Numbered from the stretch's first letter, positions 6,931 through 63,980 are shown. The stretch: DNA of 64,000 nt from Candidatus Pacearchaeota archaeon (GCA_016186425.1 JACPLR010000007.1:2838-66837), one strand, 5' to 3'. The notes: a model not told the origin generated them from the letters alone. Numbers and translations are program-made.

Positions 6931-6994
6931 AATTTCAAAAATGCTCTGAAAACATGCAATATCTTTACCTGATTTTAATGAGTAAGCTACTGAG
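6931..6994 (+). repeat. IGR-A element, 3' half
   Basis: AATTTCAAAAATGCTCTGAAAACATGCAATATCTTTACCTGATTTTAATGAGTAAGCTACTGAG. Confidence 0.8.
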
Positions 6995-7020
6995 AATAGA
7001 TTTAATTTAATCCAACTTAA

Positions 7021-7127
7021 ATCATGCTAAATTTTTCTTAAATGAAAAATTTTATATTACATATTTTAAAAAATGTTCTGAAATCATGCCATATTCTTCC
7101 CTAATTTTAATGTGAAAGTTAGTGATT
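7021..7127 (+). repeat. IGR-A element, full length
   Basis: Hairpin 1 AAATTTTTC-ttaaat-GAAAAATTT (7029-7052). Core CTGAAATCATGCCATATTCTTCCCTAATTTTAATGTGAAAGTTAGTG. Confidence 0.9.
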
Positions 7128-7213
7128 TCTTGCCAGTTTTAATTGCTCAATATAATATTAATTCAATAGTTATTTTTTTACATTTCAAGATAATTTTATA
7201 ATAAAAATAAAAA

Positions 7214-7774
7214 TCACAGCGCCTCAACTTCTTTTCTTGGCTTCATGAATCTCATCTTGTATTTATTGAAATAAATGCTTCTGTCCAAAGAAGGGTGTTT
7301 TTTTCTTGGGCTTTTGTCTATTGAATAACCCACAGGAATAATTGCTTCAATGTAAATGTTATCTGGAATCTTTAAAGCGCTTCTAACTTGTTCTTCATCA
7401 AAAGCTCCAACCCAACAACCTGCAAGTCCCAAGTCAACTAACTTCAACAAAAAATTCTCAATTGCAGCTCCTGCCTGTTGTCTTACATACATTTCTCCTA
7501 ATTCTTTGCCGTAACTCCTTATAGTATCAATAGGATCACTGCAGACAACAGCAACATAACTTGCCTCAGCAACAAAATCTTGCTGGCTTGCCTCTGTTAA
7601 TTTGGCAATAATAACCGGATCATCAACAAGAATAAATCTAACGCTTGAAATATTGCCCGCAATTGGTCCTTGCAACCCAGTTTCAAACGCCTCAATAATA
7701 TGCCTCCAGTTTGGCTTCTTAGAATGAAACTTTCTGACACTTCTCCTTTCTTTTATTACCTTGTCAAAATCCAT
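7214..7774 (-). CDS. nitroreductase family protein
   Basis: N-terminal RRSVRKF motif. Size (186 aa) and overall pattern fit the FMN-dependent nitroreductase fold. Confidence 0.8.
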   Translation of the reverse strand: MDFDKVIKERRSVRKFHSKKPNWRHIIEAFETGLQGPIAGNISSVRFILVDDPVIIAKLTEASQQDFVAEASYVAVVCSDPIDTIRSYGKELGEMYVRQQAGAAIENFLLKLVDLGLAGCWVGAFDEEQVRSALKIPDNIYIEAIIPVGYSIDKSPRKKHPSLDRSIYFNKYKMRFMKPRKEVEAL

Positions 7775-7870
7775 AATTAAACAAGGAAAAAGCTATATTT
7801 AAAGTTTTATCTAAAACTTTAGAATCAAAAAAGATAACACTGATTAATCTATAAAGGTTAACACATCAAG

Positions 7871-7947
7871 CTAATAAATCATTTAAAGGTATCGTAGTAT
7901 TTTCAAAAAATTTAGTTAAACACACAATACTTCTAAGTTAGATCTGC
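7871..7947 (+). repeat. IGR-A element, degenerate
   Basis: CTAATAAATCATTTAAAGG...GTATTTTCAAAAAATTT...CTTCTAAGTTAGATCTGC is collinear with the consensus but diverged. Confidence 0.45.
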
Positions 7948-8037
7948 TATTTTCTTAATCTAATTATAAAATCTATAATTTTTTACATTTACATATTAAA
8001 CAATAGAATATTTAAACTTCATATTATTAAACAAATA

Positions 8038-8322
8038 ATGGCAAATGAAGATAAAAGAAAAAGCAGAATAATATCCCTTGATGATATTGACAGGCAAAAT
8101 AAGATAAGACAAAGAACGCAGTTTAGAGATGATATATCTGAAGATGTAAGTTATGTCATCAATAAAGTAACTGGAGGAGATAAGGAAAAACAGAAAAAAT
8201 CCCTTTTCAAGCGCTTTCTTATGATCCTTGGAATAATTCTGCTTATTATGATTATAATAAATATCCTCCTCGGAAACATCTGGCTTATTAAATTCTTTAT
8301 CAAAGAGTTTTTTGGATTTTAA
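8038..8322 (+). CDS. hypothetical C-terminally anchored membrane protein (94 aa)
   Basis: Charged N-terminal half followed by one long hydrophobic segment (FLMILGIILLIMIIINILLGNIWLI). Confidence 0.45.
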   Translation: MANEDKRKSRIISLDDIDRQNKIRQRTQFRDDISEDVSYVINKVTGGDKEKQKKSLFKRFLMILGIILLIMIIINILLGNIWLIKFFIKEFFGF

Positions 8323-8372
8323 AATAATAAAACTGATAATACCAAATCTATTAATTAATGCTTAACCTATTT

Positions 8373-8516
8373 AAATCATGCAAAATTTCTCCTATTAAAA
8401 GGAAAGTTTGATAAAGAAAACCATTGGTTGTCTTTATTATTTTCTATTGTATGAATTCAAAAATTTCTTGAATCAATGCCACATCTTTCCCTAATTTTTA
8501 CATCTTAAGTTACTGG
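8373..8516 (+). repeat. IGR-A element, full length with one nested B module
   Basis: AAATTTCTCCTATTAAAAGGAAAGTTT, then the B hairpin ATAAAGAAAACC-att-GGTTGTCTTTAT, then GAATTCAAAAATTTCTTGAATCAATGCCACATCTTTCCCTAATTTTTACATCTTAAGTTACTGG. Confidence 0.9.
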
Positions 8517-11499: not shown

Positions 11500-11590
11500 A
11501 TAAAAATTAGTAAATTTAGGCTTAAATATATTATGAATATTAAAATTAAGGAATATCCAGATTATTAATTCAAATCAAATTTAAAAAAGA

Positions 11591-11703
11591 CTAATAAATT
11601 GTGCTAAATTTTTCACATAGAAAAATTTTATATTGTAATGATTCAGAAATTGTTTTGAAATCATGCCATATCCTTGCCTGATTTTAATGAGTAAACTAAC
11701 GAT
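11591..11703 (+). repeat. IGR-A element, full length
   Basis: CTAATAAAT...AAATTTTTC-acata-GAAAAATTT...GTAATGATTCAGAAATTGTTTTGAAATCATGCCATATCCTTGCCTGATTTTAATGAGTAA. Confidence 0.95.
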
Positions 11704-11744
11704 ATTTTATTAAACAATTAAACTTGCATAATTCATTGTATAAG

Positions 11745-11825
11745 TCAGGTAAAAATATTGCAATATTTTCAAAATAAAGTTTAGCTAAATATATAATATC
11801 CCTATTTTACTTACATTGAAAAGCC
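11745..11825 (+). repeat. IGR-A element, degenerate (no hairpin 1)
   Basis: TCAGGTAAAAATATTGCAATATTTTCAAAATAAAG...ATATCCCTATTTTACTTACATTGAAAAGCC parallels the copy at 54475. Confidence 0.5.
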
Positions 11826-11871
11826 ACATAACAATTTATACTTTAATTATCTTTATCAACGTTTAATATTA

Positions 11872-13772: not shown

Positions 13773-13803
13773 ATTTTCTAAAAAAGCTATAATCTAATAT
13801 TAT

Positions 13804-13872
13804 ATTATTTTCAATAATATTCTGAAATCATACCGTATCCTTGCCTAATTTAAAGTAGGTAAGCTACTAACC
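13804..13872 (+). repeat. IGR-A element, 3' half
   Basis: TTTTCAATAATATTCTGAAATCATACCGTATCCTTGCCTAATTTAAAGTAGGTAAGCTACTAACC. Confidence 0.85.
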
Positions 13873-14732: not shown

Positions 14733-14785
14733 AAAAGTGTCAAAATCATAAGAATTAACTCCTTAAACTTAAAACCCTATAAGCC

Positions 14786-14880
14786 ATTTATAAATTTTAT
14801 ATGATGAAAATTTATCATTGTAATAATTCAAAACTTTTCTGAAATCATGCCATAATTTTATATATTTTATTCTTTAGAAT
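14786..14880 (+). repeat. IGR-A element, full length with diverged tail
   Basis: Hairpin AAATTTT-atatgat-(G)AAAATTT at 14792-14813. ATTGTAATAATTCAAAACTTTTCTGAAATCATGCCATAATTTTATAT. Confidence 0.8.
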
Positions 14881-14927
14881 TAGAATTTTTAGATTATTTT
14901 TTTAATTTAAGATATATTCATAATTAT

Positions 14928-15652: not shown

Positions 15653-16015
15653 ATGGCTGTAAATGAAAAATTAGAGAAGGTTGTTTTAGAAGCAATGGTA
15701 GATTTCTTAAATGAGCGTGATCCTTCATTTAACTCAATGTGTGATGGTGAAAAAGAACTTGGATTATCTTTACTTACTGAATTTTCAATGGCTAAAACAA
15801 TGGTGGATGAAATATCTAAAGTAAGGATACATGTTAATAATATTATTATATATGGCTATGATTTTAATCAAGAGCATGATGAAGAACCGGCTAAAGAAGT
15901 ATATGAAAGAGCTGTAAAAAATACCAAAGAATTTAGCGGACATCCTAACATGGAATCTTTTGTTTCATCGGGAATTGTTAAAAATAGATTTGGATGGTAT
16001 ATTACTCATATATAA
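15653..16015 (+). CDS. hypothetical protein (120 aa)
   Basis: Clean ORF with no family recognised. Confidence 0.45.
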   Translation: MAVNEKLEKVVLEAMVDFLNERDPSFNSMCDGEKELGLSLLTEFSMAKTMVDEISKVRIHVNNIIIYGYDFNQEHDEEPAKEVYERAVKNTKEFSGHPNMESFVSSGIVKNRFGWYITHI

Positions 16016-16133
16016 ATCAGGTTAAATTTTTCAATTGAAAAATTTATTATTGTAATGATTCAGAAATTGTTTTGAAATCATGCCATATCCTTGCCTGATT
16101 TTAATGAGTAAGTTTCAAATTTTTATTAATTAT
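16016..16133 (+). repeat. IGR-A element, full length, extended-tail subtype
   Basis: Hairpin AAATTTTTC-aatt-GAAAAATTT at 16024-16045. The core is identical to the 11591 copy. The tail GAGTAAGTTTCAAATTTTTATTAATTAT is shared only with the 20958 copy. Confidence 0.95.
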
Positions 16134-16162: not shown

Positions 16163-19100
16163 TTAAACCCTCTGAATATATCCTGATTTTGGAACAAAAA
16201 TATCTCCAGACATCCTAAGCTTTTCAATTGCCTCATCTAATTCAGCCTTATTTATTTTATTTTCAAGTTCTTTTTCAAGTTCTTCCATAGGAATTAATTT
16301 TCCCATTTTTGATTCTAACTTAATAATTGCATCTCTAACCTCAATAAACTTGCCTCTCTTGCTTGTCGTTACTCCAGTAACTATTTTATCAATGTCAAAA
16401 GTCTTTGTCTCATAATCATAACCTGCCTGCATTAAATAAAATTTCATCAGATTAATTGCCCTCAAAGAATCTTCTTTTTCAACAATAGGAGATAAGCGAG
16501 TTTTAGCAGAAGCCTCGCTTAACCTTACTAAAGCTTCTAATTGCCTTGCAGTAATTGGAATTGGCTTTAACGGAGAATCCGACGCTGTTGGTGCGTTTCT
16601 CAAGCTCACATAAAAATTCTTTATTTCTGCAACAGCTTCATCAGAAAGTTTAGGTATTATTTTTTGTTTTGCATAAGCAACATATTTTCTAAATAACTCT
16701 GGTTCTATACTCCCTCTTAAGATAGTATTTTGTTGTTCAAATAAAACATGAGACGCAATTGCTTCATCTCTCGCTTTTTCTGGCAAATCCCTTAACATAA
16801 AAATAACATCAAACCTGTTTAATAAAGTTGGCTGAATATCAATTTGCTGTGCAATTGCCTGATACGGATCAAATCTTCCAAATTTTGGATTCCCCGCAGC
16901 AAGAACACTTGTCTCAGCTCTCAAACTCGCCTGCACATTTGCCTTGCTTATTGTTACAGAATTATGCAAAACCATATTATTGGAAATAAAAGAATGATTT
17001 GGTTCAATAGTCACGTCATAAACCCATTTTATATCTTTATTCTTGATAATTTCAACAGATTTTATTTTAGACCATCTTATTTTGCCTTTCGAAACTATTG
17101 GGAAGGGATCTCCTTTTTTAGTTTTGATTGCCGAATTAGTAGTAATCTTTTTATTTTTTTTAGTCCAGCAAGGATGTTCTGGAGTAACAATAACCTCACG
17201 TCCATTATTTAAATTAATCTTAACAAATTTATTCGAGGCAATATGCCTGCTAACTTTATCAATTTTAACTGGATAAATAGATTCAAAATCGGTTGTTAAA
17301 ATTTTTAATCCATTATTTAAAGGTAATATCTCGCAATTTATTCCATTAATTACATTATTTTTATCCTTTTCAATTAAATTGTCAACAAATTCCCCTATTT
17401 TTATTTTAGAGCCATCTGCAAAACTTAAATTAAAATTAGGCAAATAACATTGCTGTTCCATTGCCTCATGCATTGCGCTTCTATCCTGCTCATCCATTTT
17501 TTCAATTTCATCAATGCAAACAATTCCTTTGTTGCTTAATACCATCGCCCCGGCTTCTAAACTCCATCCTTTTAAAAATTCATCTCTGACAACAGTTGCT
17601 GTTAACCCTGCACCACTTGCCCCTCTGCCCACAACGTAACGCCCCTTAGGGGCAATTTTAGAAACAAACTTTAGGGTTATAGAATTATGTACTCCTATAC
17701 CATTTGCTACAAATGTATTTGTGCCTGGAATAAATAAATCATAAACTTCTTCCTGGGTTTCAACCTCTTCAATCTTATCAATTTTAGACCATACTATTGG
17801 GCTATAAGCAATTTTTTTTAAAATATCAAAATCAGGCATTTTCTCTTTTGTTTTTTTCTGAAACATCTGAAGAATTTTCCTTAACCTTAACCTACCTATC
17901 TCCCCTCTTTTCTCAACAGTCCTCATTTCTGCAGCAAAGGTTCTATTTCCATCAATTCTTCGGTTATATCCAAGTTTCTTGGTTAAATCATAAACCAACT
18001 CTCCAACAGGAAGAAGATTATAATAACTGTACATAGGTTTATTATAAGATAAATATTCTCTTCCATAAAAATTAAAGCTATCCCTAAATTTTTGTATCAT
18101 TTGAGTCGGAACAGAAAGGGAATAATATTCTGTTTTCTTCCCTTTATATGTATAAACTCTTGAAATAATCCTGTTTAAAATTCCTATTGAGAATAATAAA
18201 TCAGAAGTTCCATGTGCAAGATCTTTTGATACTGTAATAAGTTCAAATCCTTTAATTCTTTCATCGTCTTTAATAAATCTCCCGTCTCCAGAGAAAATTC
18301 CAGAGATTAATCCTTTAATGAAATCTCTAGGGGCAAAATAAGCAAAATCCGGAATTTTCTTAATTCGTGAATAGTTTCCTTTTACTTTGCTTTCTCGTTT
18401 TTTATCAAGATTATAACAGTAATATTTTAATAAATTAGAAAGGCTTTTTGATGAAATTAAAATTCCGTCTTTAGTATTCTTATCAACATTAAGCCCAATT
18501 TCATCTGCAAAATTAATTAATTTTTGCTTAAATTTCTTATTTTTATTTGAAATATTAACAGTTTTATCAGATCTTATATATCCTTCACTTAAAAAAGCTC
18601 CTATAAAAAAACCAAATTGCTCATTTAAGAGTATTTCGCTCGGCAACTGCTTTGAGTTAGTTAAATAAGTATTAAATTTATCAGTTTTTAGTTTTTTAAC
18701 AGATTCATGGTGAAAATTAATAGGTAATGGCAAATAAGTGTTTTTATCTAAGTCGCTTCCTTTTATTGGAACTATTTCTCCTTCTTTAGATAAAGTGATA
18801 AAAGAATGATCTAAAGTAGCTATTACACTTTTCCCGTGTTCGGTTGTTACCTTTATAAGTTTTTTTTCAGGAGAGTGTTTTATTATTTGTTCAACTTTCT
18901 TCCATTTTGGAGCATGATTATTCATGTCAATGGTCAAAGTTTTTAAGCTATGCGGATATTTTCCAAATTTATTAAATAAACTTTCAATAGTATCATATCC
19001 ATATTCTTTATTGTTAAAATACAAGACTTTCTCATTCTTGCCCAAACTTTTGGCCACGCCTGGATCCCCCACTAAAAGTATATGTATGTCTCCTCTTGTA

Positions 19101-20035
19101 ACAGTTCCATCAACTTTTTGTTTTTTTATTCCCCCAAATAACTGAAGAACAAGTGACTGCTTAACTTCTTCATATCCATAAATGCTTGGAGCGATATTTT
19201 CAGTGAGCTTCCGGAAAATATTTTCATCCATTGACAATTCCTTAATTTGCATCTCATCTTCTTCAGAAATCTTTAATTCTTCATAGCTTTCTTCCAGTGG
19301 AATAACATTATTTGCATCAATAGCCAAATCAAATCTTGTTGAAACAGACCCTGTTTGCAAAGGGACAGGAACTTCACTTAATATTCCAATTACTCTTACT
19401 TTGCTTCCCGGAGTTGTTCGCTCTTCCATTTTTGGGTCAACTAAATCTTCCTTCAAAAAAACATTAAGTCTTCTCGGCTGTTCTCCTCCAATCAAACTTT
19501 CAGGACTTTCTTCAATTACAAGTCTTTGAGCATCAACCATTTGCTTGCTTATCAGTTTAAAAAAACCTTTTCTTCCGCAGGAACATCTGCTTGGCTCCTT
19601 AAATTTTTTCTCTAATTGCAGAACAGAAATAATAGTTCCGCAGGAAGGACATTCAAACCTTGCGCTGACAACCTGGGGCCTCACATCACTCGCCTGCCTG
19701 ACAATTCCCTCTATCCAGAGCATTTTATTCAAGTGCTTTGCCCTTATATTCCTTATTTTAACAAAGTTATCATCAGGCAAATCAAGCAGCCTTATCCTGG
19801 GATTTTTAAGAATGCCTATTTCCTGAAGCGAAACTTCTAGATTATTAAGAATCTCTTCAGGCTTGTCAAGCAGCATTTCCGCAATCACATGTGAAAAAGA
19901 AGCCAAATCATTAAAACTCATAAAAACTATATTTTCTCCAGACCTAGCTGCTTCTCCTATCTGTTTCTTATAAAAATTAAAAAAACCCTTTGCCTCTGCA
20001 ACAAATTCTTCTTGTTTAAGTTTATCCATTTTCAC
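16163..20035 (-). CDS. mcm: MCM replicative helicase precursor containing two inteins (672-aa mature extein)
   Basis: N-terminal Zn motif CPSCG...CSCG. Walker A GDPGVAK|S is split by intein 1. Walker B IVCIDEIEKM. HEAMEQQ| is split by intein 2. Arginine-finger region LNRFDVIFML. GAGGTGA RBS 5 nt upstream of the ATG. Confidence 0.95.
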   Translation of the reverse strand: MKMDKLKQEEFVAEAKGFFNFYKKQIGEAARSGENIVFMSFNDLASFSHVIAEMLLDKPEEILNNLEVSLQEIGILKNPRIRLLDLPDDNFVKIRNIRAKHLNKMLWIEGIVRQASDVRPQVVSARFECPSCGTIISVLQLEKKFKEPSRCSCGRKGFFKLISKQMVDAQRLVIEESPESLIGGEQPRRLNVFLKEDLVDPKMEERTTPGSKVRVIGILSEVPVPLQTGSVSTRFDLAIDANNVIPLEESYEELKISEEDEMQIKELSMDENIFRKLTENIAPSIYGYEEVKQSLVLQLFGGIKKQKVDGTVTRGDIHILLVGDPGVAKSLGKNEKVLYFNNKEYGYDTIESLFNKFGKYPHSLKTLTIDMNNHAPKWKKVEQIIKHSPEKKLIKVTTEHGKSVIATLDHSFITLSKEGEIVPIKGSDLDKNTYLPLPINFHHESVKKLKTDKFNTYLTNSKQLPSEILLNEQFGFFIGAFLSEGYIRSDKTVNISNKNKKFKQKLINFADEIGLNVDKNTKDGILISSKSLSNLLKYYCYNLDKKRESKVKGNYSRIKKIPDFAYFAPRDFIKGLISGIFSGDGRFIKDDERIKGFELITVSKDLAHGTSDLLFSIGILNRIISRVYTYKGKKTEYYSLSVPTQMIQKFRDSFNFYGREYLSYNKPMYSYYNLLPVGELVYDLTKKLGYNRRIDGNRTFAAEMRTVEKRGEIGRLRLRKILQMFQKKTKEKMPDFDILKKIAYSPIVWSKIDKIEEVETQEEVYDLFIPGTNTFVANGIGVHNSITLKFVSKIAPKGRYVVGRGASGAGLTATVVRDEFLKGWSLEAGAMVLSNKGIVCIDEIEKMDEQDRSAMHEAMEQQCYLPNFNLSFADGSKIKIGEFVDNLIEKDKNNVINGINCEILPLNNGLKILTTDFESIYPVKIDKVSRHIASNKFVKINLNNGREVIVTPEHPCWTKKNKKITTNSAIKTKKGDPFPIVSKGKIRWSKIKSVEIIKNKDIKWVYDVTIEPNHSFISNNMVLHNSVTISKANVQASLRAETSVLAAGNPKFGRFDPYQAIAQQIDIQPTLLNRFDVIFMLRDLPEKARDEAIASHVLFEQQNTILRGSIEPELFRKYVAYAKQKIIPKLSDEAVAEIKNFYVSLRNAPTASDSPLKPIPITARQLEALVRLSEASAKTRLSPIVEKEDSLRAINLMKFYLMQAGYDYETKTFDIDKIVTGVTTSKRGKFIEVRDAIIKLESKMGKLIPMEELEKELENKINKAELDEAIEKLRMSGDIFVPKSGYIQRV
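16961..17449 (-). mobile_element. MCM intein 2 (163-aa mini-intein, no endonuclease domain)
   Basis: Residues 863-1025. It starts CYLPNF... after HEAMEQQ and ends ...NNMVLHN followed by +1 Ser (SVTISKANVQASL restores the MCM consensus). Block B is VTPEHP. Confidence 0.85.
17684..19048 (-). mobile_element. MCM intein 1 (455 aa) with LAGLIDADG homing endonuclease domain, inserted in the P-loop
   Basis: Residues 330-784 of the ORF. It starts with Ser after GDPGVAK and ends ...GIGVHN followed by +1 Ser (SITLKFVSKIAP restores the MCM consensus). Block B is TLDHSF. The two LAGLIDADG motifs are FFIGAFLSEGYI and LISGIFSGDGRF. Confidence 0.85.
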
Positions 20036-20677: not shown

Positions 20678-20826
20678 TAAAAAGAAAACTCATAAAGAAA
20701 AACATTGGCTATTAAAAGGAAGCGCCATAAGAGAAACCTTGGTGTCTTTTATTATTTTATATTATATAATTCAAAATAATTATGAAATACCGCAATATTT
20801 TTACTTGGTTTATCAATTAAATCTAT
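20666..20826 (+). repeat. IGR-A element with two nested B modules, diverged
   Basis: Collinear with the 57212 copy: ATATTTCTAATAAAAAGAAAACTCATAAAGAAAAACATTGGCTATTAAAAGGAAGCGCCATAAGAGAAACCTTGGTGTCTTTTATTATTTT...AATTCAAAATAATTATGAAATACCGCAATATTTTTACTTGG. Confidence 0.75.
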
Positions 20827-20957
20827 TTAGTTTAAAATTTTTAATTATTATATATCAATAACTGTTCAGTTTGTTACAATTTCAAAATATCAAGATAATA
20901 TTAAAATCAACGAACTCTGAGTTGATTGAATAAACAAATTAAGAAGTATAATTAAAT

Positions 20958-21074
20958 TATTTTAAATTTCTCGCAAGTAGAAATTTAGTATTGTAATGAT
21001 TTAAGAATATTTCTGAAATCATGCCATATCCTTGCCTAATTTTAATGAGTAAGTTTCAAATTTTTATTAATCAT
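20958..21074 (+). repeat. IGR-A element, full length, extended-tail subtype
   Basis: Hairpin AAATTTCT-cgcaag-(T)AGAAATTT at 20964-20986. CTGAAATCATGCCATATCCTTGCCTAATTTTAATGAGTAAGTTTCAAATTTTTATTAATCAT. Confidence 0.95.
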
Positions 21075-21670: not shown

Positions 21671-21710
21671 AATCCTTTATAAAGGGGATTGCTTTATAAA
21701 CCTTTCTGAA

Positions 21711-21778
21711 TGAATTTTCAAGAAGATATTTTCTAAATATATCATATTTTTACCTAATTTAAATGTGAAAGTTACTGG
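21711..21778 (+). repeat. IGR-A element, 3' half
   Basis: TGAATTTTCAAGAAGATATTTTCTAAATATATCATATTTTTACCTAATTTAAATGTGAAAGTTACTGG. Confidence 0.75.
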
Positions 21779-21837
21779 ATACTATTATCAACTCAATTAA
21801 TTAACATAATCTTGCTTAACTTAATAATTTGTTTCTT

Positions 21838-21902
21838 ACATTTTCAAGATATGTTTTTGAATTAATGCAATATCTCTCCCTAATTTATCCATTTTAGCTG
21901 TT
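21838..21902 (+). repeat. IGR-A element, 3' half
   Basis: ACATTTTCAAGATATGTTTTTGAATTAATGCAATATCTCTCCCTAATTTATCCATTTTAGCTGTT. Confidence 0.7.
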
Positions 21903-21971
21903 ATTTTTAATATATTTTCAGTTAAATTCGTTATATAAATATAATTATAGATTACATAGCACAATAAGTTT

Positions 21972-22938: not shown

Positions 22939-25900
22939 TTAACCTCCTGCTGCTTGAATACATTGATTTCTTGAGTCTGAATTAAATGGATGTTGTATAA
23001 AGCATGAGATTGCAGCCCATATGCTTTTTAATAATCCTGTTTGTTCTTTAAATGCGCCACAAACTCCTTCTATACAAACATTGCTCTCACACTCATAATC
23101 ATTTAAGCAAGAAGCAGTAGAATTCCCCGCTTTTTTATATACAAGTGTCGCAGGATCACAATACCATACTTTATTATCATTTGATTTTACTCTGGTTTTT
23201 CCAGGCACTTCGCTTGAAATTCCATTACCAGTATTAGCTAAACATTTATTTCTTCCAGGAGGGCCTTCACAATTTGCGCTGCATTGTCCGTCTTCACAAC
23301 GAGTCTGCCCTTCTGGACATGCTTCTATTTTTACAAATGTTCTCCCATCAGAAGATTCATAAGCATCATCTCCATACCATAATACTACCTTATTATTAAT
23401 TTTCTCAACATATCCAACACTAGGCACTCCAGAAGGCAAACCGCTTAATTCTCCAATAACATTTATATAATTGCCTCCAGAACTTGAATTTGATTTATAT
23501 AATCCAATACTCATAGGTGCAGTTGCTGAAGAACCCGATGTTGCAGGGCTATTAATTGTTCCTACAATCAAATACCATAAATAAACAGCATCATCGCCAG
23601 TTAAATTAGAGTAATAACCTAAGTTTGGAATCTTATTTGTTGGAAGTCCTCCTTGATTAAACAGAACATTTGCAAAAGTTCCGTTTCCGTATCCAACATA
23701 TCTATCACTTCCATTCCATAAAACTATTCTTCCCCCATGTCCTTCTAATGGATGCCAATAAGCATCTGTAGGAATAAAATCTCCAGGTAATTTTCCTCCC
23801 TCTCCACTGCCTCCTCCTGTACTAGATGAAAGTCTTTGCATTTTCCCGGTAGTATTCCTGAAATATATTTCCCTGTTTGCATTCCATAATAAAATACTAT
23901 CATTTCCAGGAAATCCTTGATAATATCCTATAACAGGTTTAAAGTCTGCTGGCAAACCTTCTGCAACCTTAGTTGTAAATTGTGTAAACCTTCCTGTGTT
24001 TCCTCTATAAATAAATGCAGCTCCACTCTCATTCCATAAAACAATTGCTCCTCCGCCATACGGATGCCAATATCCAAATTTAGGTATGAATCCTGCCGGC
24101 AATCCAGGATAAGCTCTTACTCCTTCAATATCTCCGCCACCACCGCCAGTGCCTCCAGCACCACTTTGGCAAAATCCAGTAGCAGCATTACAAAAACTTT
24201 CTGTAGGACAATCTTGTCTTTCTGTTGCAGGAGCGCAAGGAACTCCAGGAAGGGTATTTGTTTGAGCAGTGCAAGCAGCATTAGTGCCACTGCCTGCTGT
24301 TAAAGTTATATATTTTACAATTGGAGAAACAGTTCCAGAATTAAAACTACATGCAGAACCATTCCAGATTTTATAACCTGTAACATCTTTTACAAGAATA
24401 TATATTTCTTTATTAGAAGGGACAGCTAAAGAAACTCCTGCTTCAGAATAACCTGCCATAATCTCATTAACCCTGCTGCTTATAATTAATTGATTAGTTG
24501 TTTTATCATAAACTTCAACTGTTCCTGATTTATCCACTGCAGAAGCGGGTATAAAAAAATGAACACTAAGAGTAGTAGTCCCTGCTACAACGACTCTTTC
24601 AACAGCTGTAAAAGTTGCTCCGTCAGTTGATTCATAAGCATCAGCTCCATACCATAAAACAATTTTCTTTCTTATATTATCAAAATAACCTGCAGTTAAC
24701 ACTTGATTTGTTGGCAAACCAGTAGGAGAAATAAGATTAAACTTGTTCTCTGACTGGCTCCAATTATAAAGTTTCAGCTGCCCATTAATTTCATACCATA
24801 ACTGAACCCCTTTCTGTGCAGTAGAAAATTCGTAATAATAACTGACTTTTGGAGTTCCTGTTCCTGGCAAATTATAATTTACAGGATTAATTTGTGAAAA
24901 AACACTATCGCTAGCTGCAATATACCATTTTGTTGCATCAAATAAAGAAACTCTTCCGCCGGTAGTTCCCAAATTATGCCAGTAACCTGTCTTAGGAACA
25001 AAGTCGTAAGGCAATTCTCCCGGCTTTGTATCTGCTGCATTGCCAATTCTATCAGAAATTTTAGTATATTTTCCTATTACATAACTCCAAAGATACATAA
25101 CCCTATTACTATCACTTAATATTATTGTTTCTTTTCCAGAAAATCCTTGATACCATCCATAGGTTGGCTTGTAATCTCGTGGCAAACCAACAATATCTTT
25201 TCCTCCAGCTCCAGCATCATTCCATAAAGCAAAATTAACTCCATTAGTTGAATAGTAAACTCTCCCATTTGCATCCCATAATACAAGAACCCCTTTATTT
25301 GTTGCAGGAGCTGAAGGATTTCTATGCCAATATCCAAACCTTGGAGTAAACCCTGCAGGCAAACCAGTATACTCTCCAGAAGTTGCTGGGCATGATTGTA
25401 TCTCACTTGGCTTATTAGTTATAACTCCGCAATTATTGGAATCTGTGCATGTTCTTGTTTTAACTCCATTTACACAATTTACATTATCCCATGATGCAGG
25501 ATTGCAAGTCCAGGACGGAGTGCAAGTAACCGAACCCGGACAAGGATCAAATTCACAATTCAAAGCAGGATTTCTTCCAACAGAACTTCCATCAGGACAA
25601 ATTTTAGCTTCCTTTGTACAAGCAGAAGTACATTGAGTTGTTCCAGTTCCTGTTTCTAATGTTATTGTTTTTGTAACAACGCCTCCACTTACAGTAAGAG
25701 TAAAAGGACAATTTATACCATTAAAATCTTTATAGCCATTAACATCTTTAATATAAATATAAATAGGAATATCAAGAATATTTGCGCTAGAAGATGAAGG
25801 AAATGAAGCTGAAAAAGCACCGGCAACTTGTAACCCCAACCTAACATTATTATTAGAATCTAAAACTTGATTATCAGACGCTCTTCTTATTTCTATTGTA

Positions 25901-26088
25901 GCAATATTATCTGCAGAACCCTGAGCATTTGCAACAACATCCAATCTTGGAGGAGAACTCAACTGCGGCTTACCTTTAAAAGAATCAATAAAATCAGTAA
26001 ACCAATTTGCAGAAACAAAACTCATCGCCAAAAGAATAAAAATGACTAATATTGATACTAAAATAAATGCGCTCACACCCTTTTTCAT
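22939..26088 (-). CDS. giant secreted Cys-rich repeat protein (1049 aa), paralog of 28146..30989
   Basis: Signal/TM then SFVSANWFTDFID. Two internal copies of [Ig-like beta domain - Cys-rich knot - five GLPxxFxPxxGYWH...LW units]. C-terminal CLNDYECESNVCIEGVC plus a helix. Confidence 0.8.
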   Translation of the reverse strand: MKKGVSAFILVSILVIFILLAMSFVSANWFTDFIDSFKGKPQLSSPPRLDVVANAQGSADNIATIEIRRASDNQVLDSNNNVRLGLQVAGAFSASFPSSSSANILDIPIYIYIKDVNGYKDFNGINCPFTLTVSGGVVTKTITLETGTGTTQCTSACTKEAKICPDGSSVGRNPALNCEFDPCPGSVTCTPSWTCNPASWDNVNCVNGVKTRTCTDSNNCGVITNKPSEIQSCPATSGEYTGLPAGFTPRFGYWHRNPSAPATNKGVLVLWDANGRVYYSTNGVNFALWNDAGAGGKDIVGLPRDYKPTYGWYQGFSGKETIILSDSNRVMYLWSYVIGKYTKISDRIGNAADTKPGELPYDFVPKTGYWHNLGTTGGRVSLFDATKWYIAASDSVFSQINPVNYNLPGTGTPKVSYYYEFSTAQKGVQLWYEINGQLKLYNWSQSENKFNLISPTGLPTNQVLTAGYFDNIRKKIVLWYGADAYESTDGATFTAVERVVVAGTTTLSVHFFIPASAVDKSGTVEVYDKTTNQLIISSRVNEIMAGYSEAGVSLAVPSNKEIYILVKDVTGYKIWNGSACSFNSGTVSPIVKYITLTAGSGTNAACTAQTNTLPGVPCAPATERQDCPTESFCNAATGFCQSGAGGTGGGGGDIEGVRAYPGLPAGFIPKFGYWHPYGGGAIVLWNESGAAFIYRGNTGRFTQFTTKVAEGLPADFKPVIGYYQGFPGNDSILLWNANREIYFRNTTGKMQRLSSSTGGGSGEGGKLPGDFIPTDAYWHPLEGHGGRIVLWNGSDRYVGYGNGTFANVLFNQGGLPTNKIPNLGYYSNLTGDDAVYLWYLIVGTINSPATSGSSATAPMSIGLYKSNSSSGGNYINVIGELSGLPSGVPSVGYVEKINNKVVLWYGDDAYESSDGRTFVKIEACPEGQTRCEDGQCSANCEGPPGRNKCLANTGNGISSEVPGKTRVKSNDNKVWYCDPATLVYKKAGNSTASCLNDYECESNVCIEGVCGAFKEQTGLLKSIWAAISCFIQHPFNSDSRNQCIQAAGG

Positions 26089-26333: not shown

Positions 26334-26400
26334 CTAATAAATTATTTTAAATTTCTCGTAGGGAGAAATTTAGCATTGTATTGTTTTCAAAAAAAATTTC
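26334..26400 (+). repeat. IGR-A element, 5' half
   Basis: CTAATAAATTATTTTAAATTTCTC-gtagg-GAGAAATTTAGCATTGTATTGTTTTCAAAAAAAATTTC. Hairpin at 26349-26371. The copy ends at the lig stop codon. Confidence 0.85.
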
Positions 26401-26411
26401 TCTTTCTCTTT

Positions 26412-31260: not shown

Positions 31261-31284
31261 TAATCTTAAAATTATCAATGATTA

Positions 31285-36322: not shown

Positions 36323-36342
36323 TTTAAATTAACAATCTTAAA

Positions 36343-43939: not shown

Positions 43940-44033
43940 GGGCCTATAGTTCAATGGATAAAACATTCGGCTTCGGTTACCACCTATTAATAGGAGATAC
44001 CGGAAGATCTAGGTTCGAATCCTAGTAGGCCCA
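43940..44033 (+). tRNA. tRNA-Arg(UCG) with 22-nt anticodon-loop intron
   Basis: GGGCCTA-TA-GTTC-AATGGATA-AAAC-A-TTCGG-CTTCGG[22 nt]A-CCGGA-AGAT-CTAGG-TTCGAAT-CCTAG-TAGGCCC-A. The acceptor and T stems are perfect. No encoded CCA. Confidence 0.75.
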
Positions 44034-44104
44034 TTTTTTAATTAAAGTTTAATTAAAAAACAAGATAAAACAAAAAAATATTAATTTAGTTTAAATAAAT
44101 GTTA

Positions 44105-44172
44105 AATTAGGCATAAATTTTCCTCTTAAAAGGAAAGTTTGATAAAGAAAACCATTGGTTGTCTTTATTTTC
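44105..44172 (+). repeat. IGR-A element, 5' part with one B module
   Basis: AATTAGGCATAAATTTTCCTCTTAAAAGGAAAGTTTGATAAAGAAAACCATTGGTTGTCTTTATTTT. The B part is near-identical to the 8393 copy. Confidence 0.85.
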
Positions 44173-46547: not shown

Positions 46548-46658
46548 ATAAATTATGTTAAATTTTTCACAGAAGAAAAATTTAGTGTTATATCATTTTC
46601 AAAATTATTCTGAAATCATGCCATCCCCTTGCCTCATTTTAATGTGTAAGCTGCTAAT
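46548..46658 (+). repeat. IGR-A element, full length
   Basis: Hairpin AAATTTTTC-acagaa-GAAAAATTT at 46560-46583. TTCTGAAATCATGCCATCCCCTTGCCTCATTTTAATGTGTAAGCTGCTAAT. Confidence 0.95.
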
Positions 46659-46897
46659 ATTTTATCAATAACCATTCAATACTTTAATATTATATAGGTT
46701 ATATGCTAAGGTTTAAAACAATAGAAGACCTTAATGATATAAGATTAAATATTAAAGATTTACAAAGAAAGGTATTCAAAAATGGCAATAAAAAGTGATC
46801 CTGTTGACATGATATTTGATATAATTAAAATAGCGATAATTGTAATTATAGGTTATATAATTATTAAAGCATTATTGTCTGTAATTTAATGTCTAAA

Positions 46898-51149: not shown

Positions 51150-51246
51150 TTTTATTTTTCTTTGCCTCCTTTCACTATTTTATTTTTCATTTTATTTATT
51201 TTAAAAAATTTAATGTTTTAATTTAAAAATAGCTTAAATAATATTA

Positions 51247-51351
51247 ATCAGGCAAACTTTTTCTTTGAATGAAAAGGTTCTATTATGTATTTTCAAAATT
51301 ATTCTTGAATCATAACAATATCTTTGCCTAATTTTTCCATTTAAGCTGCTT
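51247..51351 (+). repeat. IGR-A element, full length, hairpin 1 with compensatory substitutions
   Basis: AACTTTTTC-tttgaat-GAAAAGGTT at 51255-51279. TATTTTCAAAATTATTCTTGAATCATAACAATATCTTTGCCTAATTTTTCCATTTAAGCTGCT. Confidence 0.9.
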
Positions 51352-51388
51352 ATTAATTTTTATCTTTATATAGGTTATATACAATAAA

Positions 51389-52003
51389 TTACATTTTTCT
51401 CCAATTTAATATCATGAAAATTATCAATGCAAAAACCCCGCCAAGCAAAAACCATATCCATATTTCAGGCATTTGTGAAACAGAATTAACTACATTACTT
51501 CCTGCATCTGGCATAATGCTCGGAGCAACTTTATCCAGAATTTCAGCACCCCCAGAACTTACCACTCCACTATCTGCACTTCTAACAGCCATATCTGCAG
51601 TTTTTTGTATACTTGAAGAATAAACATTAGAAGTATATAATCTAATTAGCAAAGCTCCAATTCCTGTTGCTAATAATGCTGAAAGCAAAGTTTTTGTATT
51701 TGAACTTGATTTCGGAGAAATTATTATTTTCTTATTAGCAACTTTATAATAAGGTATTTTCTTGCCCTTAACACTCCAGAAATAAGTTTTTGTCTTTTCA
51801 ATCAGCCCTGCTTCAAGCAATTTCTTGATATTATAATTAACAGTATTTGCAGGAAGTTTCAATGCATTAGATATTTCTGTCTCACTTGCCTCTTTATCAG
51901 CAAGATGCTCTAAAATAGCTTTAGAGGTTTTATTTGATATAACATCTGCTAAAACCTTTATCTTCTCATCATCCATTTCAAACATAATATATTTATTTGT
52001 CAT
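51389..52003 (-). CDS. ArsR-like wHTH regulator with C-terminal membrane segments
   Basis: ILEHLADKEASETEISNALKLPANTVNYNIKKLLEAGLIEK (wHTH) plus two hydrophobic segments (LLSALLATGIGALLIRLY and WIWFLLGGVFALIIFMILNW). Confidence 0.6.
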   Translation of the reverse strand: MTNKYIMFEMDDEKIKVLADVISNKTSKAILEHLADKEASETEISNALKLPANTVNYNIKKLLEAGLIEKTKTYFWSVKGKKIPYYKVANKKIIISPKSSSNTKTLLSALLATGIGALLIRLYTSNVYSSSIQKTADMAVRSADSGVVSSGGAEILDKVAPSIMPDAGSNVVNSVSQMPEIWIWFLLGGVFALIIFMILNWRKM

Positions 52004-52075
52004 AATTTACCTATGAAAAACATATATTTAAACCATTTCAAGCCTTCAATAGAAGTTGAAGTCTTGAAATATCTT

Positions 52076-52136
52076 TTAGAATAAAATATTCTGAAATCAG
52101 ATTATATCATCGCCTACTTTATACACTTAAGCAACC
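52076..52136 (+). repeat. IGR-A element, 3' half, diverged
   Basis: TTAGAATAAAATATTCTGAAATCAGATTATATCATCGCCTACTTTATACACTTAAGCAACC. Confidence 0.6.
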
Positions 52137-52209
52137 TATTTATTTAATTTTAACCTAAAAACTACTGAGACTTAATTAATTTAGCTGAGTATAACTAATT
52201 TAATAATTT

Positions 52210-54357: not shown

Positions 54358-54474
54358 AACCCTCTTTTTTATTATACTTTAAATAACTAATATGTATTTA
54401 AAAATATATGCTTAACAATTGTTAAGAAAATTTCCGGACACTACTCTATAAAAATTAACATATCAAACTTAATA

Positions 54475-54559
54475 ATCAGGTAAAATTGCTGCAGTATTTT
54501 CAAAATTATTCTGGAATCATGCCATATCTCTACATAATCTTAATATGAAAGTTACTAAG
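54475..54559 (+). repeat. IGR-A element lacking hairpin 1
   Basis: ATCAGGTAAAATTGCTGCAGTATTTTCAAAATTATTCTGGAATCATGCCATATCTCTACATAATCTTAATATGAAAGTTACTAAG. Confidence 0.85.
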
Positions 54560-57211: not shown

Positions 57212-57388
57212 CTAATAAATCATTTTAAATTTCTCCTAATAAAAGGAAAGTTTCATAAAGAAAAACATTGGCTATTAAAAGGAGATGTCATAAGAAGAAC
57301 CTTGGTTCTTTTTATTATTTAGTATTGTAATGATTCAAGACTTTTTGAAATCATGCCATATCCTTGCCTAAGTTAAATGAGAAATCTA
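57212..57388 (+). repeat. IGR-A element, full length with two nested B modules
   Basis: CTAATAAATCATTTTAAATTTCTCCTAATAAAAGGAAAGTTTCATAAAGAAAAACATTGGCT + ATTAAAAGGAGATGTCATAAGAAGAACCTTGGTTCTTTTTATTATTT + AGTATTGTAATGATTCAAGACTTTTTGAAATCATGCCATATCCTTGCCTAAGTTAAATGAG. Confidence 0.95.
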
Positions 57389-57430
57389 CAAATATTTAAA
57401 CATTCTATAAGTTATATACTCAAATTAATA

Positions 57431-57495
57431 TTATTCAAAATTGTTCCGAAATCACACCATAGCTTCCCTAATTTTTACATCTTAAGTTTCTATCC
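57431..57495 (+). repeat. IGR-A element, 3' half
   Basis: TTATTCAAAATTGTTCCGAAATCACACCATAGCTTCCCTAATTTTTACATCTTAAGTTTCTATCC. Confidence 0.8.
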
Positions 57496-57497
57496 TT

Positions 57498-57590
57498 TTT
57501 ATTGGTTGTCTTTATTTGATATTGAAAGAATTCAAAAAATATCTTGAATCATTGCCACATCTTTACCTACCTTATTCGCTTAATATGTTA
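57498..57590 (+). repeat. B-module remnant plus IGR-A 3' half
   Basis: TTTATTGGTTGTCTTTATTTGATATTGAAAGAATTCAAAAAATATCTTGAATCATTGCCACATCTTTACCTACCTTATTCGCTTAATATG. Confidence 0.8.
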
Positions 57591-57624
57591 ATTTTTAGTG
57601 CTTTTATAGATTAATTATATAATT

Positions 57625-60306: not shown

Positions 60307-60365
60307 AAGAAAAATAAATTCAGTATTAACGAAAAACAAGTCTAAATTACTTAACCGCGTAGAAG

Positions 60366-60469
60366 TAGGTTAAATTTCTCCTAAAAGAGAAATTTAGAAT
60401 TATAGTAATTCAAGAATATTTTGAATCCATGCCATATCTCTGCCTAATTTTCATATCTTAAGTTACTGC
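60366..60469 (+). repeat. IGR-A element, full length
   Basis: Hairpin AAATTTCTC-ctaaaa-GAGAAATTT at 60372-60395. GTAATTCAAGAATATTTTGAATCCATGCCATATCTCTGCCTAATTTTCATATCTTAAGTTACTGC. Confidence 0.95.
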
Positions 60470-62338: not shown

Positions 62339-62709
62339 ACAGCTTTTTCTAAGGTTAATGGTTGATATCCTAAAAGTTCTCTTTTTTCTATATCTTTCCT
62401 TTTATCTTCTCTAAAAGAAATATCTTCTTCACTTATATCAAATTCTGTTCTCGATTCAACTTCCATTATATGATACCAAAAATAAATATTATACTCTTCT
62501 TCCCATTTCAACCCTCTTGGGGATAAGTGTTCATGAAACTCTGGTGTAGGATTCCCTCCATTAAAAAACTGATCATTTCCTTTAAGATAATCTGCAGTTG
62601 CTTCATTACTAGTAACCGGCCTGTGTTCTTCTATACCCATATACCATTTATGAACATTTATCCAGTCCATTTGCCCTTCTAAATATCTTTTTTTCCATAA
62701 ACGAGCCAT
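62335..62709 (-). CDS. hypothetical protein (124 aa)
   Basis: Trp/His-rich ORF whose 3' end overlaps the alaS stop by 4 nt. No family recognised. Confidence 0.45.
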   Translation of the reverse strand: MARLWKKRYLEGQMDWINVHKWYMGIEEHRPVTSNEATADYLKGNDQFFNGGNPTPEFHEHLSPRGLKWEEEYNIYFWYHIMEVESRTEFDISEEDISFREDKRKDIEKRELLGYQPLTLEKAV

Positions 62710-62743
62710 AACTCTATCTAAATAATCATATATTTAAATTTAT

Positions 62744-63412
62744 TTATTCCTCAACCAAAGGCACAAACACAAATCCAGGGAACTCTTTTGTAATTATGGT
62801 ATTTTTCTGTTTCTTAAACTGAAAAACCGAGTTCTTCACACTTGCAACAAGTATCCCATTTTCATTCAGCTGTTCAAATAACTGTCTGGGAATTCTAGGA
62901 CAAGCTGCACTTATTAAAATTCTGTCAAAAGGAGCTTTTTCTTTCAGTCCATTAAATCCATTTCTATGTATTACAACTATATTTTTATGCTCTTTTAATA
63001 CATCTTGAGATTTTTCAGCAATCTCCTTAACTCGTTCAATTCCATAAATCTCTGAATTTTTATTAACTAACTCACTGATTAAAGCCAAAACATAACCGCT
63101 TCCGCTTCCAATTTCAAGAATTTTGAGTTTATTATTTTTAGTTAATTTATCTAACTCTAGCAAGTTCAACATAAAAGCAATTGTAAATGGCTGTGAAATT
63201 GTCTGCCCAAAACCAATGCTCAAAGTAATGTCTTCATAAGTATATTCTTTAAACTCTTCAGAAATAAAATTCTCTCTTTTAACTTTATTAAAAGCTTCAA
63301 TTATTTTTTTATTAAATCTCTGTTTCTTTAAACTAGCTAAAAGAGCTTGTTTTTTCATAATAAAACAAGGTATGAGAAATATAAAAATGTTAAGAATTTT
63401 ATTAATGTTCAT
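62744..63412 (-). CDS. pcm: protein-L-isoaspartate O-methyltransferase
   Basis: SAM motif ILEIGSGSGYVLALI. QTISQPFTIAFML and FDRILISAA. The likely true start is ATG 63358 (MKKQALLASL...). Confidence 0.8.
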   Translation of the reverse strand: MNINKILNIFIFLIPCFIMKKQALLASLKKQRFNKKIIEAFNKVKRENFISEEFKEYTYEDITLSIGFGQTISQPFTIAFMLNLLELDKLTKNNKLKILEIGSGSGYVLALISELVNKNSEIYGIERVKEIAEKSQDVLKEHKNIVVIHRNGFNGLKEKAPFDRILISAACPRIPRQLFEQLNENGILVASVKNSVFQFKKQKNTIITKEFPGFVFVPLVEE

Positions 63413-63465
63413 ATTTTAAATAATTTAAACATATACATTACTCTACTTAAATACTTAACCAACTT

Positions 63466-63570
63466 ATAAATCATTTTAAATTTCTCTAAACGAGAAATTT
63501 TATATTATATGATTCGAGATTCTTGAAATATATCCATATTTTCCCTGATTTTTTCGTTAGAGTTACTCAA
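63466..63570 (+). repeat. IGR-A element, full length
   Basis: ATAAATCATTTTAAATTTCTC-taaac-GAGAAATTT (hairpin at 63478-63500). ATGATTCGAGATTCTTGAAATATATCCATATTTTCCCTGATTTTTTCGTTAGAGTTACTCAA. Confidence 0.9.
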
Positions 63571-63622
63571 CTACTTATTCAATTATTCCTATATTAAAGT
63601 CTTACTTTTCTCTCACTATTTC

Positions 63623-63871
63623 TTATTCAGCCAAGAAAACCTTGTCATTTGGCCTTACTCTCTCGCTAACTTGCATGCCAACATCATCCCCTTTTTTTGC
63701 TGTCTGTATCGGCTTATGGTTCACCTGCATGCTATCAACTTCTTGTGTAAAGTCAGTTGTAGTGCCTTTTACATGTATCTTATCTCCAACCTTTAAATTG
63801 CCCTTTAACTGAATTACAGCAACTCCAATGTTGTCAAAATAGTGGGTTATTTTGCCTATTTCTTTAGACAT
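63623..63871 (-). CDS. small EF-Tu domain-2-like beta-barrel protein (translation elongation factor-like)
   Basis: 82 aa. IGKITHYFDNIGVAVIQLKGNLKVGDKIHVKG...GDDVGMQV matches the stand-alone GTP_EFTU_D2-like family. Confidence 0.5.
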   Translation of the reverse strand: MSKEIGKITHYFDNIGVAVIQLKGNLKVGDKIHVKGTTTDFTQEVDSMQVNHKPIQTAKKGDDVGMQVSERVRPNDKVFLAE

Positions 63872-63911
63872 TTTATATAATATTATAATAATCGCTAGTT
63901 TATAAATTTTA

Positions 63912-63980
63912 AGATTATTGAAATTTATCAGAATTACAACCTATTTTATCCAATTCATCACTTAAAACTGCTAAACTAAC
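63912..63980 (+). repeat. IGR-A element, degenerate 3' half
   Basis: AGATTATTGAAATTTATCAGAATTACAACCTATTTTATCCAATTCATCACTTAAAACTGCTAAACTAAC. It is followed at 63989 by CCTAATAAATC, the usual 5' boundary motif of another copy that runs off the window. Confidence 0.4.

Follow-up and report, generated by a model that had tools for sequence, protein, structure and literature searches.

IGR-A, an intergenic repeat family with replication-strand bias in a Pacearchaeota lineage, and its possible mobile origin

Insertion sequences of the IS200/IS605 family are defined by hairpins at both ends and by a left end that abuts a fixed tetra- or pentanucleotide target. Most of their insertions go into the lagging-strand template, on the 3' side of a short target, and they have no terminal inverted repeats (PMC5027513); in archaea they form the most widespread insertion sequence family (PMC13343696). 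The palindrome-associated transposable elements (PATEs) of Haloquadratum and cyanobacteria derive from this family and are short, non-coding intergenic sequences with neither terminal inverted repeats nor target-site duplications. Here we describe IGR-A, a non-coding intergenic repeat of about 105 nt with the same properties, which recurs along a 64-kb stretch of DNA from Candidatus Pacearchaeota archaeon, a groundwater DPANN archaeon (GCA_016186425.1, JACPLR010000007.1:2838-66837; hereafter the window, with positions counted from its first nucleotide). IGR-A is a real and previously undescribed repeat family, and it belongs to a known kind of sequence, namely prokaryotic intergenic repeats or non-autonomous elements with a replication-strand bias. 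We tentatively read its copies as old, lineage-specific relics of a non-autonomous mobile element that worked like an IS200/IS605-derived element and inserted strand-specifically, and we assign this reading a probability of about 40%. Membership in the IS200/IS605 family proper is not established, as IGR-A has a hairpin at one end, no conserved target motif and no TnpA that we could find.

Further points of likeness between IGR-A and PATEs are a hairpin placed subterminally, with about 11-12 nt between it and one end, a strong bias of orientation relative to the replication strand and the occurrence in archaea. IGR-A departs from them in that a single hairpin end is supported, that we found neither a conserved tetra- or pentanucleotide flank nor a partner of the TnpA or TnpB type, and that it has no similarity to any described element, as well as in its modular build with an optional minisatellite insert. 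The repetitive extragenic palindromes (REPs) and their bacterial interspersed mosaic elements (BIMEs), associated with Y1 enzymes called RAYTs, are linked to HUH enzymes acting on single-strand hairpins (PMC3333891). Like IGR-A, they are highly repeated extragenic palindromes that lie at transcription-unit boundaries and form mosaic clusters of motifs. REPs are, however, 20-40 nt long, carry a GTAG-type 5' tetranucleotide and usually come as inverted pairs, whereas IGR-A is about 105 nt long, co-oriented and mostly unstructured. In the alignments of copies we found no GTAG-type motif beside its main hairpin (hairpin 1), and we found only one tail-to-tail pair of copies and no RAYT gene.

A different parallel is offered by the attC sites of sedentary chromosomal integrons (such as the Vibrio cholerae repeats), which are repeats of about 60-140 nt placed after nearly every gene in one orientation. 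These sites act as folded single strands and their orientation is related to replication (PMC5371416). We considered an integron attC array and rejected it: instead of promoterless cassettes, IGR-A copies are separated by syntenic housekeeping genes that lie on both strands and have their own promoters, each with a transcription factor B recognition element and a TATA box (BRE/TATA), and the window holds no integrase. The end pairing between R and L boxes typical of attC sites is also unsupported in IGR-A. The corresponding candidate, a pairing or subterminal inverted repeat between the leader AAATCAGGC and the core sequence GCCTGATTT, was discarded with 64% of cells paired and covariation nearly nil.

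Census and anatomy of the family

We searched both strands of the window with an iterated nhmmer profile and, with filters disabled, with a covariance model (R1) that had been built from 13 copies and calibrated. At E < 0.01 we recovered 24 distinct IGR-A loci on the + strand, to which three genuine loci on the - strand are added; the other - strand matches coincide with + copies and are shadows of internal palindromes. The total of 27 model matches, together with some fragments of another module (module B), is lower than the roughly 32 loci that the original prediction had counted, but the family itself is real, and all eight copies that had been singled out as the best ones fit one consensus. 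The claim that nearly all spacers longer than 150 bp are occupied also stands, with IGR-A occupying some 20 of the 26 spacers that reach 150 nt. Altogether the copies sum to about 2.9 kb, which is 4.5% of the window and approximately one-quarter of its intergenic DNA. The first 6.9 kb of the window have compact spacers and no IGR-A copy. Median pairwise identity among copies is 61%. The two closest (11595 and 16013), for which an identity of about 95% had been given, are 88% identical over the model and include a 62-nt identical block.

The genomes of DPANN archaea are tiny and streamlined, and repeats are believed to be few in them. IGR-A shows that one Pacearchaeota lineage tolerated a burst of non-coding insertions, at a density that is notable for a DPANN genome. 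The family matches none of those described in Rfam: a search with Rfam 15 at gathering and permissive thresholds returned only tRNAs, three of which reached the gathering score, and no IGR-A match at E <= 5. BLAST against PLSDB plasmids and INPHARED phages gave no IGR-A match, and an exact-pattern scan of viral contigs found no IGR-A either. When GTDB genomes and JGI metagenomes were scanned for exact patterns, IGR-A turned up on Pacearchaeota contigs of two groundwater sites, Rifle and Hainich, and nowhere else; the leftover matches are chance ones, on contigs of much higher GC (41-58%) and without a significant model match. In the literature on intergenic repeats of DPANN and Pacearchaeota we found no description of such a family.

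Read on the + strand, IGR-A opens with an 11-nt 5' leader (TAAATCATGYT), which is followed by hairpin 1, an A/T-rich structure of 9-11 bp composed of AAATTTTTC, a loop of 4-7 nt and GAAAAATTT. After it come the linker ATTTWRTATTG, a weak second palindrome (hairpin 2) around TTCARAA...TTYTGAA, a conserved unstructured core (ATCATGCCATATCCTTGCCTAATTTTAATGAGTAAGYTAC) and an AT-rich 3' tail, often RATWTTTTATTAAT; the optional module B also has its place after hairpin 1. Hairpin 1 reaches a mean z-score of -4 against shuffled sequences on either strand, 92% of its cells are paired, and seven of nine pairs have changed on both sides, as expected of compensatory substitutions. Hairpin 2 has a z-score of about -1 and a variable register. 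RNAalifold returned no consensus structure from a hand-made alignment and hairpin 1 alone from a MAFFT alignment. The description of IGR-A as a multi-hairpin element is therefore right as regards hairpin 1, which is robust, but does not extend to the weak hairpin 2 or to the unstructured 3' third.

Two absences noted from the start were confirmed against shuffled controls. The best inverted match between the 5' and 3' end regions is no better than in the controls (18 copies), so that there are no terminal inverted repeats, and flanking direct repeats are not longer than in the controls (16 copies), as expected if there is no target-site duplication. Just before the 5' boundary, T is found in 16 and A in 12 of 18 copies, although age has blurred the boundaries. 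From the foot of hairpin 1 to the drop in conservation there are 11-12 nt, a distance that bears a resemblance, and only that, to the 10 nt between the right-end hairpin of IS608 and its cleavage site (PMC3201880).

The structure of the ends also bears on whether IGR-A could be a mobile relic produced by another route, either a decayed DDE-type miniature inverted-repeat transposable element (MITE) or a rolling-circle element (IS91- or Helitron-like). Under this explanation the orientation bias would have arisen because one orientation was selected against or because copying was local, rather than through targeting of single-stranded DNA in the lagging-strand template. MITEs such as Correia elements, Rickettsia palindromic elements (RPEs) and Sulfolobus SM1-4 are, like IGR-A, small, non-coding, abundant and lineage-specific, and they too inflate spacers, decay and become homogenised by recombination. 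Terminal inverted repeats and target-site duplications are, however, what defines MITEs, and their insertions occur in both orientations, whereas IGR-A has neither feature and 89% of its copies are co-oriented. Given the great age of the family (median identity 61%), terminal repeats or duplications, if short, could have been lost, and the sharper 5' end, the variable 3' extensions and the tandem partial copies recall rolling-circle read-through. Insertion polymorphism, near-neutral decay and the demonstrated recombination among copies (see below) would suit such a relic as well. Against it, terminal inverted repeats and target-site duplications are missing even from the best-preserved copies, DDE-type MITEs normally insert in both orientations, and no Rep or DDE transposase gene is present in the window. 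Moreover, no selective force is known that would link a neutral insert of 100 nt to the replication strand, while both sense and antisense copies of IGR-A track the skew. We consider this origin somewhat unlikely.

Orientation and the replication-type strand

The orientation of IGR-A is strongly skewed, with 24 + copies against three - copies (binomial p = 4.9e-5), or 19 against three when counted by spacer (p = 8.6e-4). The original prediction had about 30 of 30 copies reading in the + direction, with a chance probability on the order of 1e-9; orientation is not absolute, given three genuine reverse copies, and the probability is far higher than that value. The clearest of them is a full-length copy in a divergent spacer at 41065-41174 (-), with 71.2 bits under the covariance model and an nhmmer E-value of 2e-12. 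The second, at 7857-7954 (-), is weak and decayed, and the reverse reading is favoured by 33.9 bits versus 22.4 bits for the + strand at the same place. The third is a partial copy at 11723-11809 (-; 31.9 bits), which stands tail to tail with the copy at 11595-11703, recurs in the related locus L029 and has an inverted BLAST match at 20759-20820.

We separated gene-linked from strand-linked asymmetry by using third codon positions. Measured on the + strand, third-position skews are -0.04 (GC) and +0.16 (AT) for + genes, and -0.32 (GC) and +0.11 (AT) for - genes. The + strand is thus C/A-rich regardless of gene direction, and the - strand holds 68% of the coding sequence. In bacterial and single-origin archaeal genomes, the leading strand is usually G/T-rich and gene-rich. 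By this rule, the + strand, being C/A-rich and facing mostly - strand coding sequence, would be the lagging-type strand, with forks travelling from right to left.

Spacers between tandem genes allow the effects of replication and transcription to be told apart. Within the window, IGR-A is antisense to its neighbours in 11 spacers between two - genes and sense in two spacers between two + genes (13779 and 60361). Among loci from relatives, genes of L003 lie on the T-rich strand and IGR-A is antisense to them, genes of L008 and L013 lie on the A/C-rich strand and IGR-A is sense, and L004 and L014 have no skew and are thus uninformative. When the tandem-gene spacers of the window, L003, L008 and L013 are pooled, IGR-A is antisense in 13 of 13 leading-type pairs and sense in four of four lagging-type pairs. 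Since sense and antisense copies both track the skew, polarity follows the replication-type strand and not transcription. This agrees with the early proposal that polarity is tied to the chromosome.

Taken together with the ends described above, this pattern suggests how the bias may have arisen. Orientation would have been set at insertion by a strand-specific, replication-coupled mechanism acting on single-stranded DNA, of the 'peel-and-paste' type known from IS200/IS605. A Y1/HUH transposase supplied in trans would recognise the hairpin, and in the lagging-strand template the reverse-complement strand of IGR-A would act as the active 'top' strand. The family would now be largely inactive and decaying, and partly homogenised by gene conversion. 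If the partner enzyme exists, IGR-A would represent a new case of replication-coupled single-strand transposition in archaea. The strand bias of the repeat may also serve as a practical marker of fork direction in uncultured archaea with unmapped origins.

Relatives, drift and exchange between copies

We compared the regions around close homologues of TBP and of the KH protein. Four sister Pacearchaeota lineages, two of them on contigs of 0.83 and 0.86 Mb, have a TBP that is 93-96% identical and keep much of the gene order of the window (L15e, ligase, TBP, MCM and OB-fold genes, and in most cases also the ZIP and aIF genes). In their syntenic TBP-MCM-ligase-aIF regions we found no model match at E <= 1, and the spacers measure 1-165 nt. 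MCM and ORF120 overlap in L015 but are separated by a 147-nt spacer in the window, and the spacer between the aIF1A and KH genes measures 1-35 nt in the sister lineages and 372 nt in the window. The syntenic comparison suggested at the outset thus shows that IGR-A is absent from the sister lineages, although it did not return exact insertion boundaries.

Same-genus relatives (L021, L029 and L028), whose genes are 84-92% identical to those of the window, do carry the repeat. L021 and L029 share orthologues of the copy after MCM, of that in the ligase spacer and, between the aIF1A and KH genes, of the two copies that stand tail to tail. The origin of the family thus lies in this genus-level clade, before the splits within it. 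We compared the identity of orthologous copies with that of third codon positions in the same regions. The two values are 0.785 and 0.789 between the window and L029 in the aIF1A-KH region, 0.673 and 0.711 between the window and L021 after MCM, and 0.722 and 0.670 between the window and L021 upstream of TBP. Orthologous IGR-A copies drift essentially neutrally, at about the rate of codon third positions.

The paralogous copies at 11595-11703 and 16013-16120, which lie 4.4 kb apart and have otherwise diverged, share a 62-nt block that is identical in both and differs in each of their orthologues. Gene conversion between IGR-A copies is shown by this block, and it explains the young appearance of the pair without any recent transposition. 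The closest relatives (L022, L023, L028, L029 and others) are known from contigs of 1-14 kb, several of which end at or near an IGR-A copy or module B. The repeats probably break up short-read assemblies of the clade, which would explain why these contigs are so short.

Neutral drift and absence from sister lineages are hard to reconcile with a function for the host. IGR-A could in principle be polar DNA that serves the cell, as a directional terminator or insulator or as an array of binding sites for a chromosome-organising or replication protein, with its orientation selected relative to the fork. The position of IGR-A at most transcription-unit boundaries would fit such a role, as would an orientation that tracks the replication-type strand, a hairpin 1 that compensatory changes have maintained and that has T-runs next to it on both strands, and the persistence of the repeat in a streamlined genome. 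In addition, one orthologous stretch of 60 nt (core and tail) has three differences where about nine were expected. On the other hand, the syntenic spacers of the sister lineages lack IGR-A, which is hence not needed there for expression or replication; orthologues have overall diverged to the same extent as codon third positions; truncation, tandem arrangement or decay affects many of the copies; and gene promoters lie outside the element. Known polar sequences such as KOPS, Chi and Ter are skewed relative to the fork to a similar extent (about 85-90%), but they are functional motifs of 8-23 bp, conserved across genera and under selection, whereas IGR-A exceeds 100 nt, is absent from the sisters and evolves near neutrality. 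We therefore judge a selected host function to be unlikely, and the replication or segregation signal that was the second of three options first put forward is disfavoured by sisters with the same gene order and no IGR-A and by drift close to that of third positions. No host role of IGR-A has been demonstrated beyond the lengthening of spacers, to which T-runs may possibly be added. It is improbable that IGR-A, far from being a passive relic, is a replication-polar element kept by the host, or else a strand-specific mobile element peculiar to DPANN archaea and independent of Y1/HUH enzymes; were this true, its orientation would switch exactly at the origin and terminus, and IGR-A would be the first long and dense polarity marker of an archaeal chromosome.

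The third option, a family of structured small RNAs read from the + strand, and with it the idea of small-peptide genes, depend on signals of expression. Among genes with at least 45 nt of spacer, about every second one has the promoter motif of the genome (AAAGGTTTATAAAT, BRE plus TATA) with its end 20-21 nt ahead of the ATG, which implies that mRNAs are mostly leaderless, and these gene promoters lie between IGR-A and the gene. Early apparent matches to an internal promoter at the 5' end of IGR-A were dismissed, as the motif is found at a fixed position in two of 21 copies compared to a background of 10%, and the - strand tail shows no enrichment of the promoter motif either. A run of T4-T6 follows the core in most copies and could be taken in favour of a small RNA, and mismatches in hairpin 1 comprise six G·T wobbles to one A·C, a ratio that is not significant. 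Folding z-scores are nevertheless equal on both strands, with no strand asymmetry, only one helix covaries, and no Rfam match exists. C/D-box small RNAs were also considered and rejected, since the boxes are not conserved by eye. As for a peptide, a short hydrophobic mini-open reading frame (ORF) starting at the core ATG (MPYPCLILMSK[LF]xIFY*) can be read in about 10 copies, for example at 11662-11712, 46616-46669 and about 770-820 of L008, and three copies from two genomes share its end. In the other copies and in the L029 orthologue it is absent, shifted or shortened, which led us to reject a coding role and bears out the initial statement that no ORF is conserved. Given also the near-neutral evolution of the repeat, small RNAs or peptides as its product appear very improbable.

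Mobilisation of single-stranded DNA on the lagging strand, the remaining option of the original prediction, is the candidate mechanism that fits best, and none of the evidence is incompatible with it. In its favour are the lack of terminal inverted repeats and target-site duplications, the subterminal hairpin, the strand bias, the insertion polymorphism relative to sister lineages and the near-neutral decay. That IGR-A is mostly a relic of a mobile element is indicated by lineage-specific insertion into otherwise compact spacers, by copies that are truncated or in tandem, by concerted evolution and neutral drift, and by the lack of a promoter of its own. The mechanism of insertion is the simplest explanation for a replication-strand bias in sequence that drifts neutrally. 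Several observations weigh against an IS200/IS605-like origin. Instead of subterminal palindromes at both ends, IGR-A has a solid hairpin at one end only, and its conserved 3' third has no structure (z-score of about 0). We found no conserved tetra- or pentanucleotide at either end and nothing conserved past the 3' tail; the boundaries themselves are fuzzy, with, in subsets of copies, a semi-conserved 15-nt extension upstream and a tail and a further module downstream. We detected no clean empty site among same-genus relatives, where copies are shared or spacers rearranged, and the age of the family (median identity 61%) accounts for the want of a fresh filled and empty pair that would define the ends. 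About 50 ORFs of the window include no Y1/HUH enzyme, TnpA, TnpB, or other transposase or integrase, and precomputed Pfam lists of the relatives' loci contain no transposase or integrase. Finally, the direction of replication is deduced from skew alone, the link between orientation and skew outside the window rests on three independent loci only, and L028, in its orthologue of the spacer 11500-11871, has a copy that points the other way.

Individual copies, module B and neighbouring genes

Full copies of IGR-A on the + strand are spread over most of the window. Those with the highest covariance model scores lie at 7018-7126 (101.6 bits), 11595-11703 (101.5 bits, with an orthologue in L029), 46549-46658 (101.1 bits) and 16013-16120 (97.5 bits). 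The last of these sits directly downstream of MCM, has an orthologue in L021 and shares its 62-nt block with the copy at 11595. Another full copy, at 20953-21061 (95.1 bits), is found downstream of the TBP gene, and the one at 60361-60469 (93.6 bits) is sense to both neighbours in a spacer between + genes, according to the gene map. Further full copies occupy 51244-51353 (89.8 bits), 31156-31264 (85.2 bits), 63467-63570 (80.6 bits), 36339-36445 (79.1 bits) and 33365-33476 (79 bits).

Incomplete copies are frequent, and about 14 have only the core, without the hairpin 1 module. A core-only copy at 6892-6994 (+; 56.9 bits; nhmmer 6928-6990, model positions 42-104) is in tandem with the full copy that follows. 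The copy at 13779-13871 (+; 48.4 bits) has no hairpin 1 and is sense to both + neighbours on the gene map, and that at 54472-54559 (+; 56.3 bits), also without hairpin 1, lies in a divergent spacer. Tandem runs of cores are seen at 21697-21905 (+; 21697-21779 with 40.4 bits and 21806-21905 with 42.3 bits), at 57311-57592 and at 9416-9634 of L008. The reverse situation occurs at 26338-26430 (+; 36.4 bits), where only the 5' half with the hairpin 1 module is present (nhmmer model positions 1-55), and at 14780-14887 (+; 49.6 bits) the 3' part has decayed.

Module B is a minisatellite of 34-37 nt with a unit of approximately TTGGCGTTTAAAAGGAGATGTCATAAGAAGAACC, and it includes a BRE/TATA-like site with a score of 9.3. 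It occurs singly, in arrays or within IGR-A after hairpin 1, and its direction is uniform across all copies in the window. One array lies within 31291-31416 (+), where 3.1 copies of a 34-nt unit were identified by Tandem Repeats Finder (TRF; 31298-31403, score 170) and by BLAST; another array is found at 9203-9456 of L021. A module B copy at 36235-36306 (+) matches 8392-8429, 44113-44160 and 57236-57291 by BLAST. At 20678-20830 (+), module B (20678-20776, detected by BLAST to other B modules) precedes a decayed IGR-A copy (20718-20830, 31 bits). The long variant, in which module B follows hairpin 1, is represented by 8372-8516 (+; 55.2 bits; aligned with L003 and 57218), 57218-57393 and 697-835 of L003. 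The second of these opens a composite locus at 57218-57592 (+), made of leader, module B twice and core, followed by two tandem cores at 57408-57493 and 57502-57592 (nhmmer 57218-57388; covariance model 48.3, 42.8 and 37.8 bits; TRF 57236-57305). A 5' fragment of the long variant (leader and module B) at 44102-44169 (+) is 91% identical to 8371-8438.

One locus stands apart, as the copy at 52029-52139 (+; 43.3 bits) is a divergent, IGR-A-like sequence that, in the alignment, has a hairpin of other sequence at the position of hairpin 1. This palindrome, with 10-bp arms (CAAGCCTTCAA-TAG-TTGAAGTCTTG), adjoins the BRE/TATA of a gene for an ArsR/TrmB-like helix-turn-helix regulator (51389-52003, -). 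It could serve the regulator gene as an autoregulatory operator, or else belong to a diverged copy of IGR-A.

The window has a GC content of about 30% (range 29-34%) and encodes archaeal core proteins, among them an MCM with inteins, ATP-dependent DNA ligase, TBP, TFE, aIF1A, aIF2-beta, aRF1 and ribosomal protein L15e, as well as several aminoacyl-tRNA synthetases and intron-containing tRNAs. All scanned genes that flank IGR-A are housekeeping genes. The MCM helicase (16163-20035, -) is 1290 aa long and apparently contains two intein-like insertions, while MCM of the relatives is either intein-free, with 670 aa, or has 1124-1185 aa with Pfam intein matches; intein content thus varies within the clade. 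Two of the tRNAs found with Rfam, at 43940-44033 (+; 94 nt) and 36781-36934 (-; 154 nt), were missed by ARAGORN and are presumably intron-containing archaeal tRNAs, the second with an unusually long intron. Large paralogous secreted or surface proteins of 1049 and 947 aa are encoded at 22939-26088 (-) and 28146-30989 (-), and have in common an N-terminal signal region ('...SANWFTDF') and a C-terminal motif ('NDYECESN.C..G.C'). Gene content of the L15e-ligase-TBP region varies among the relatives.

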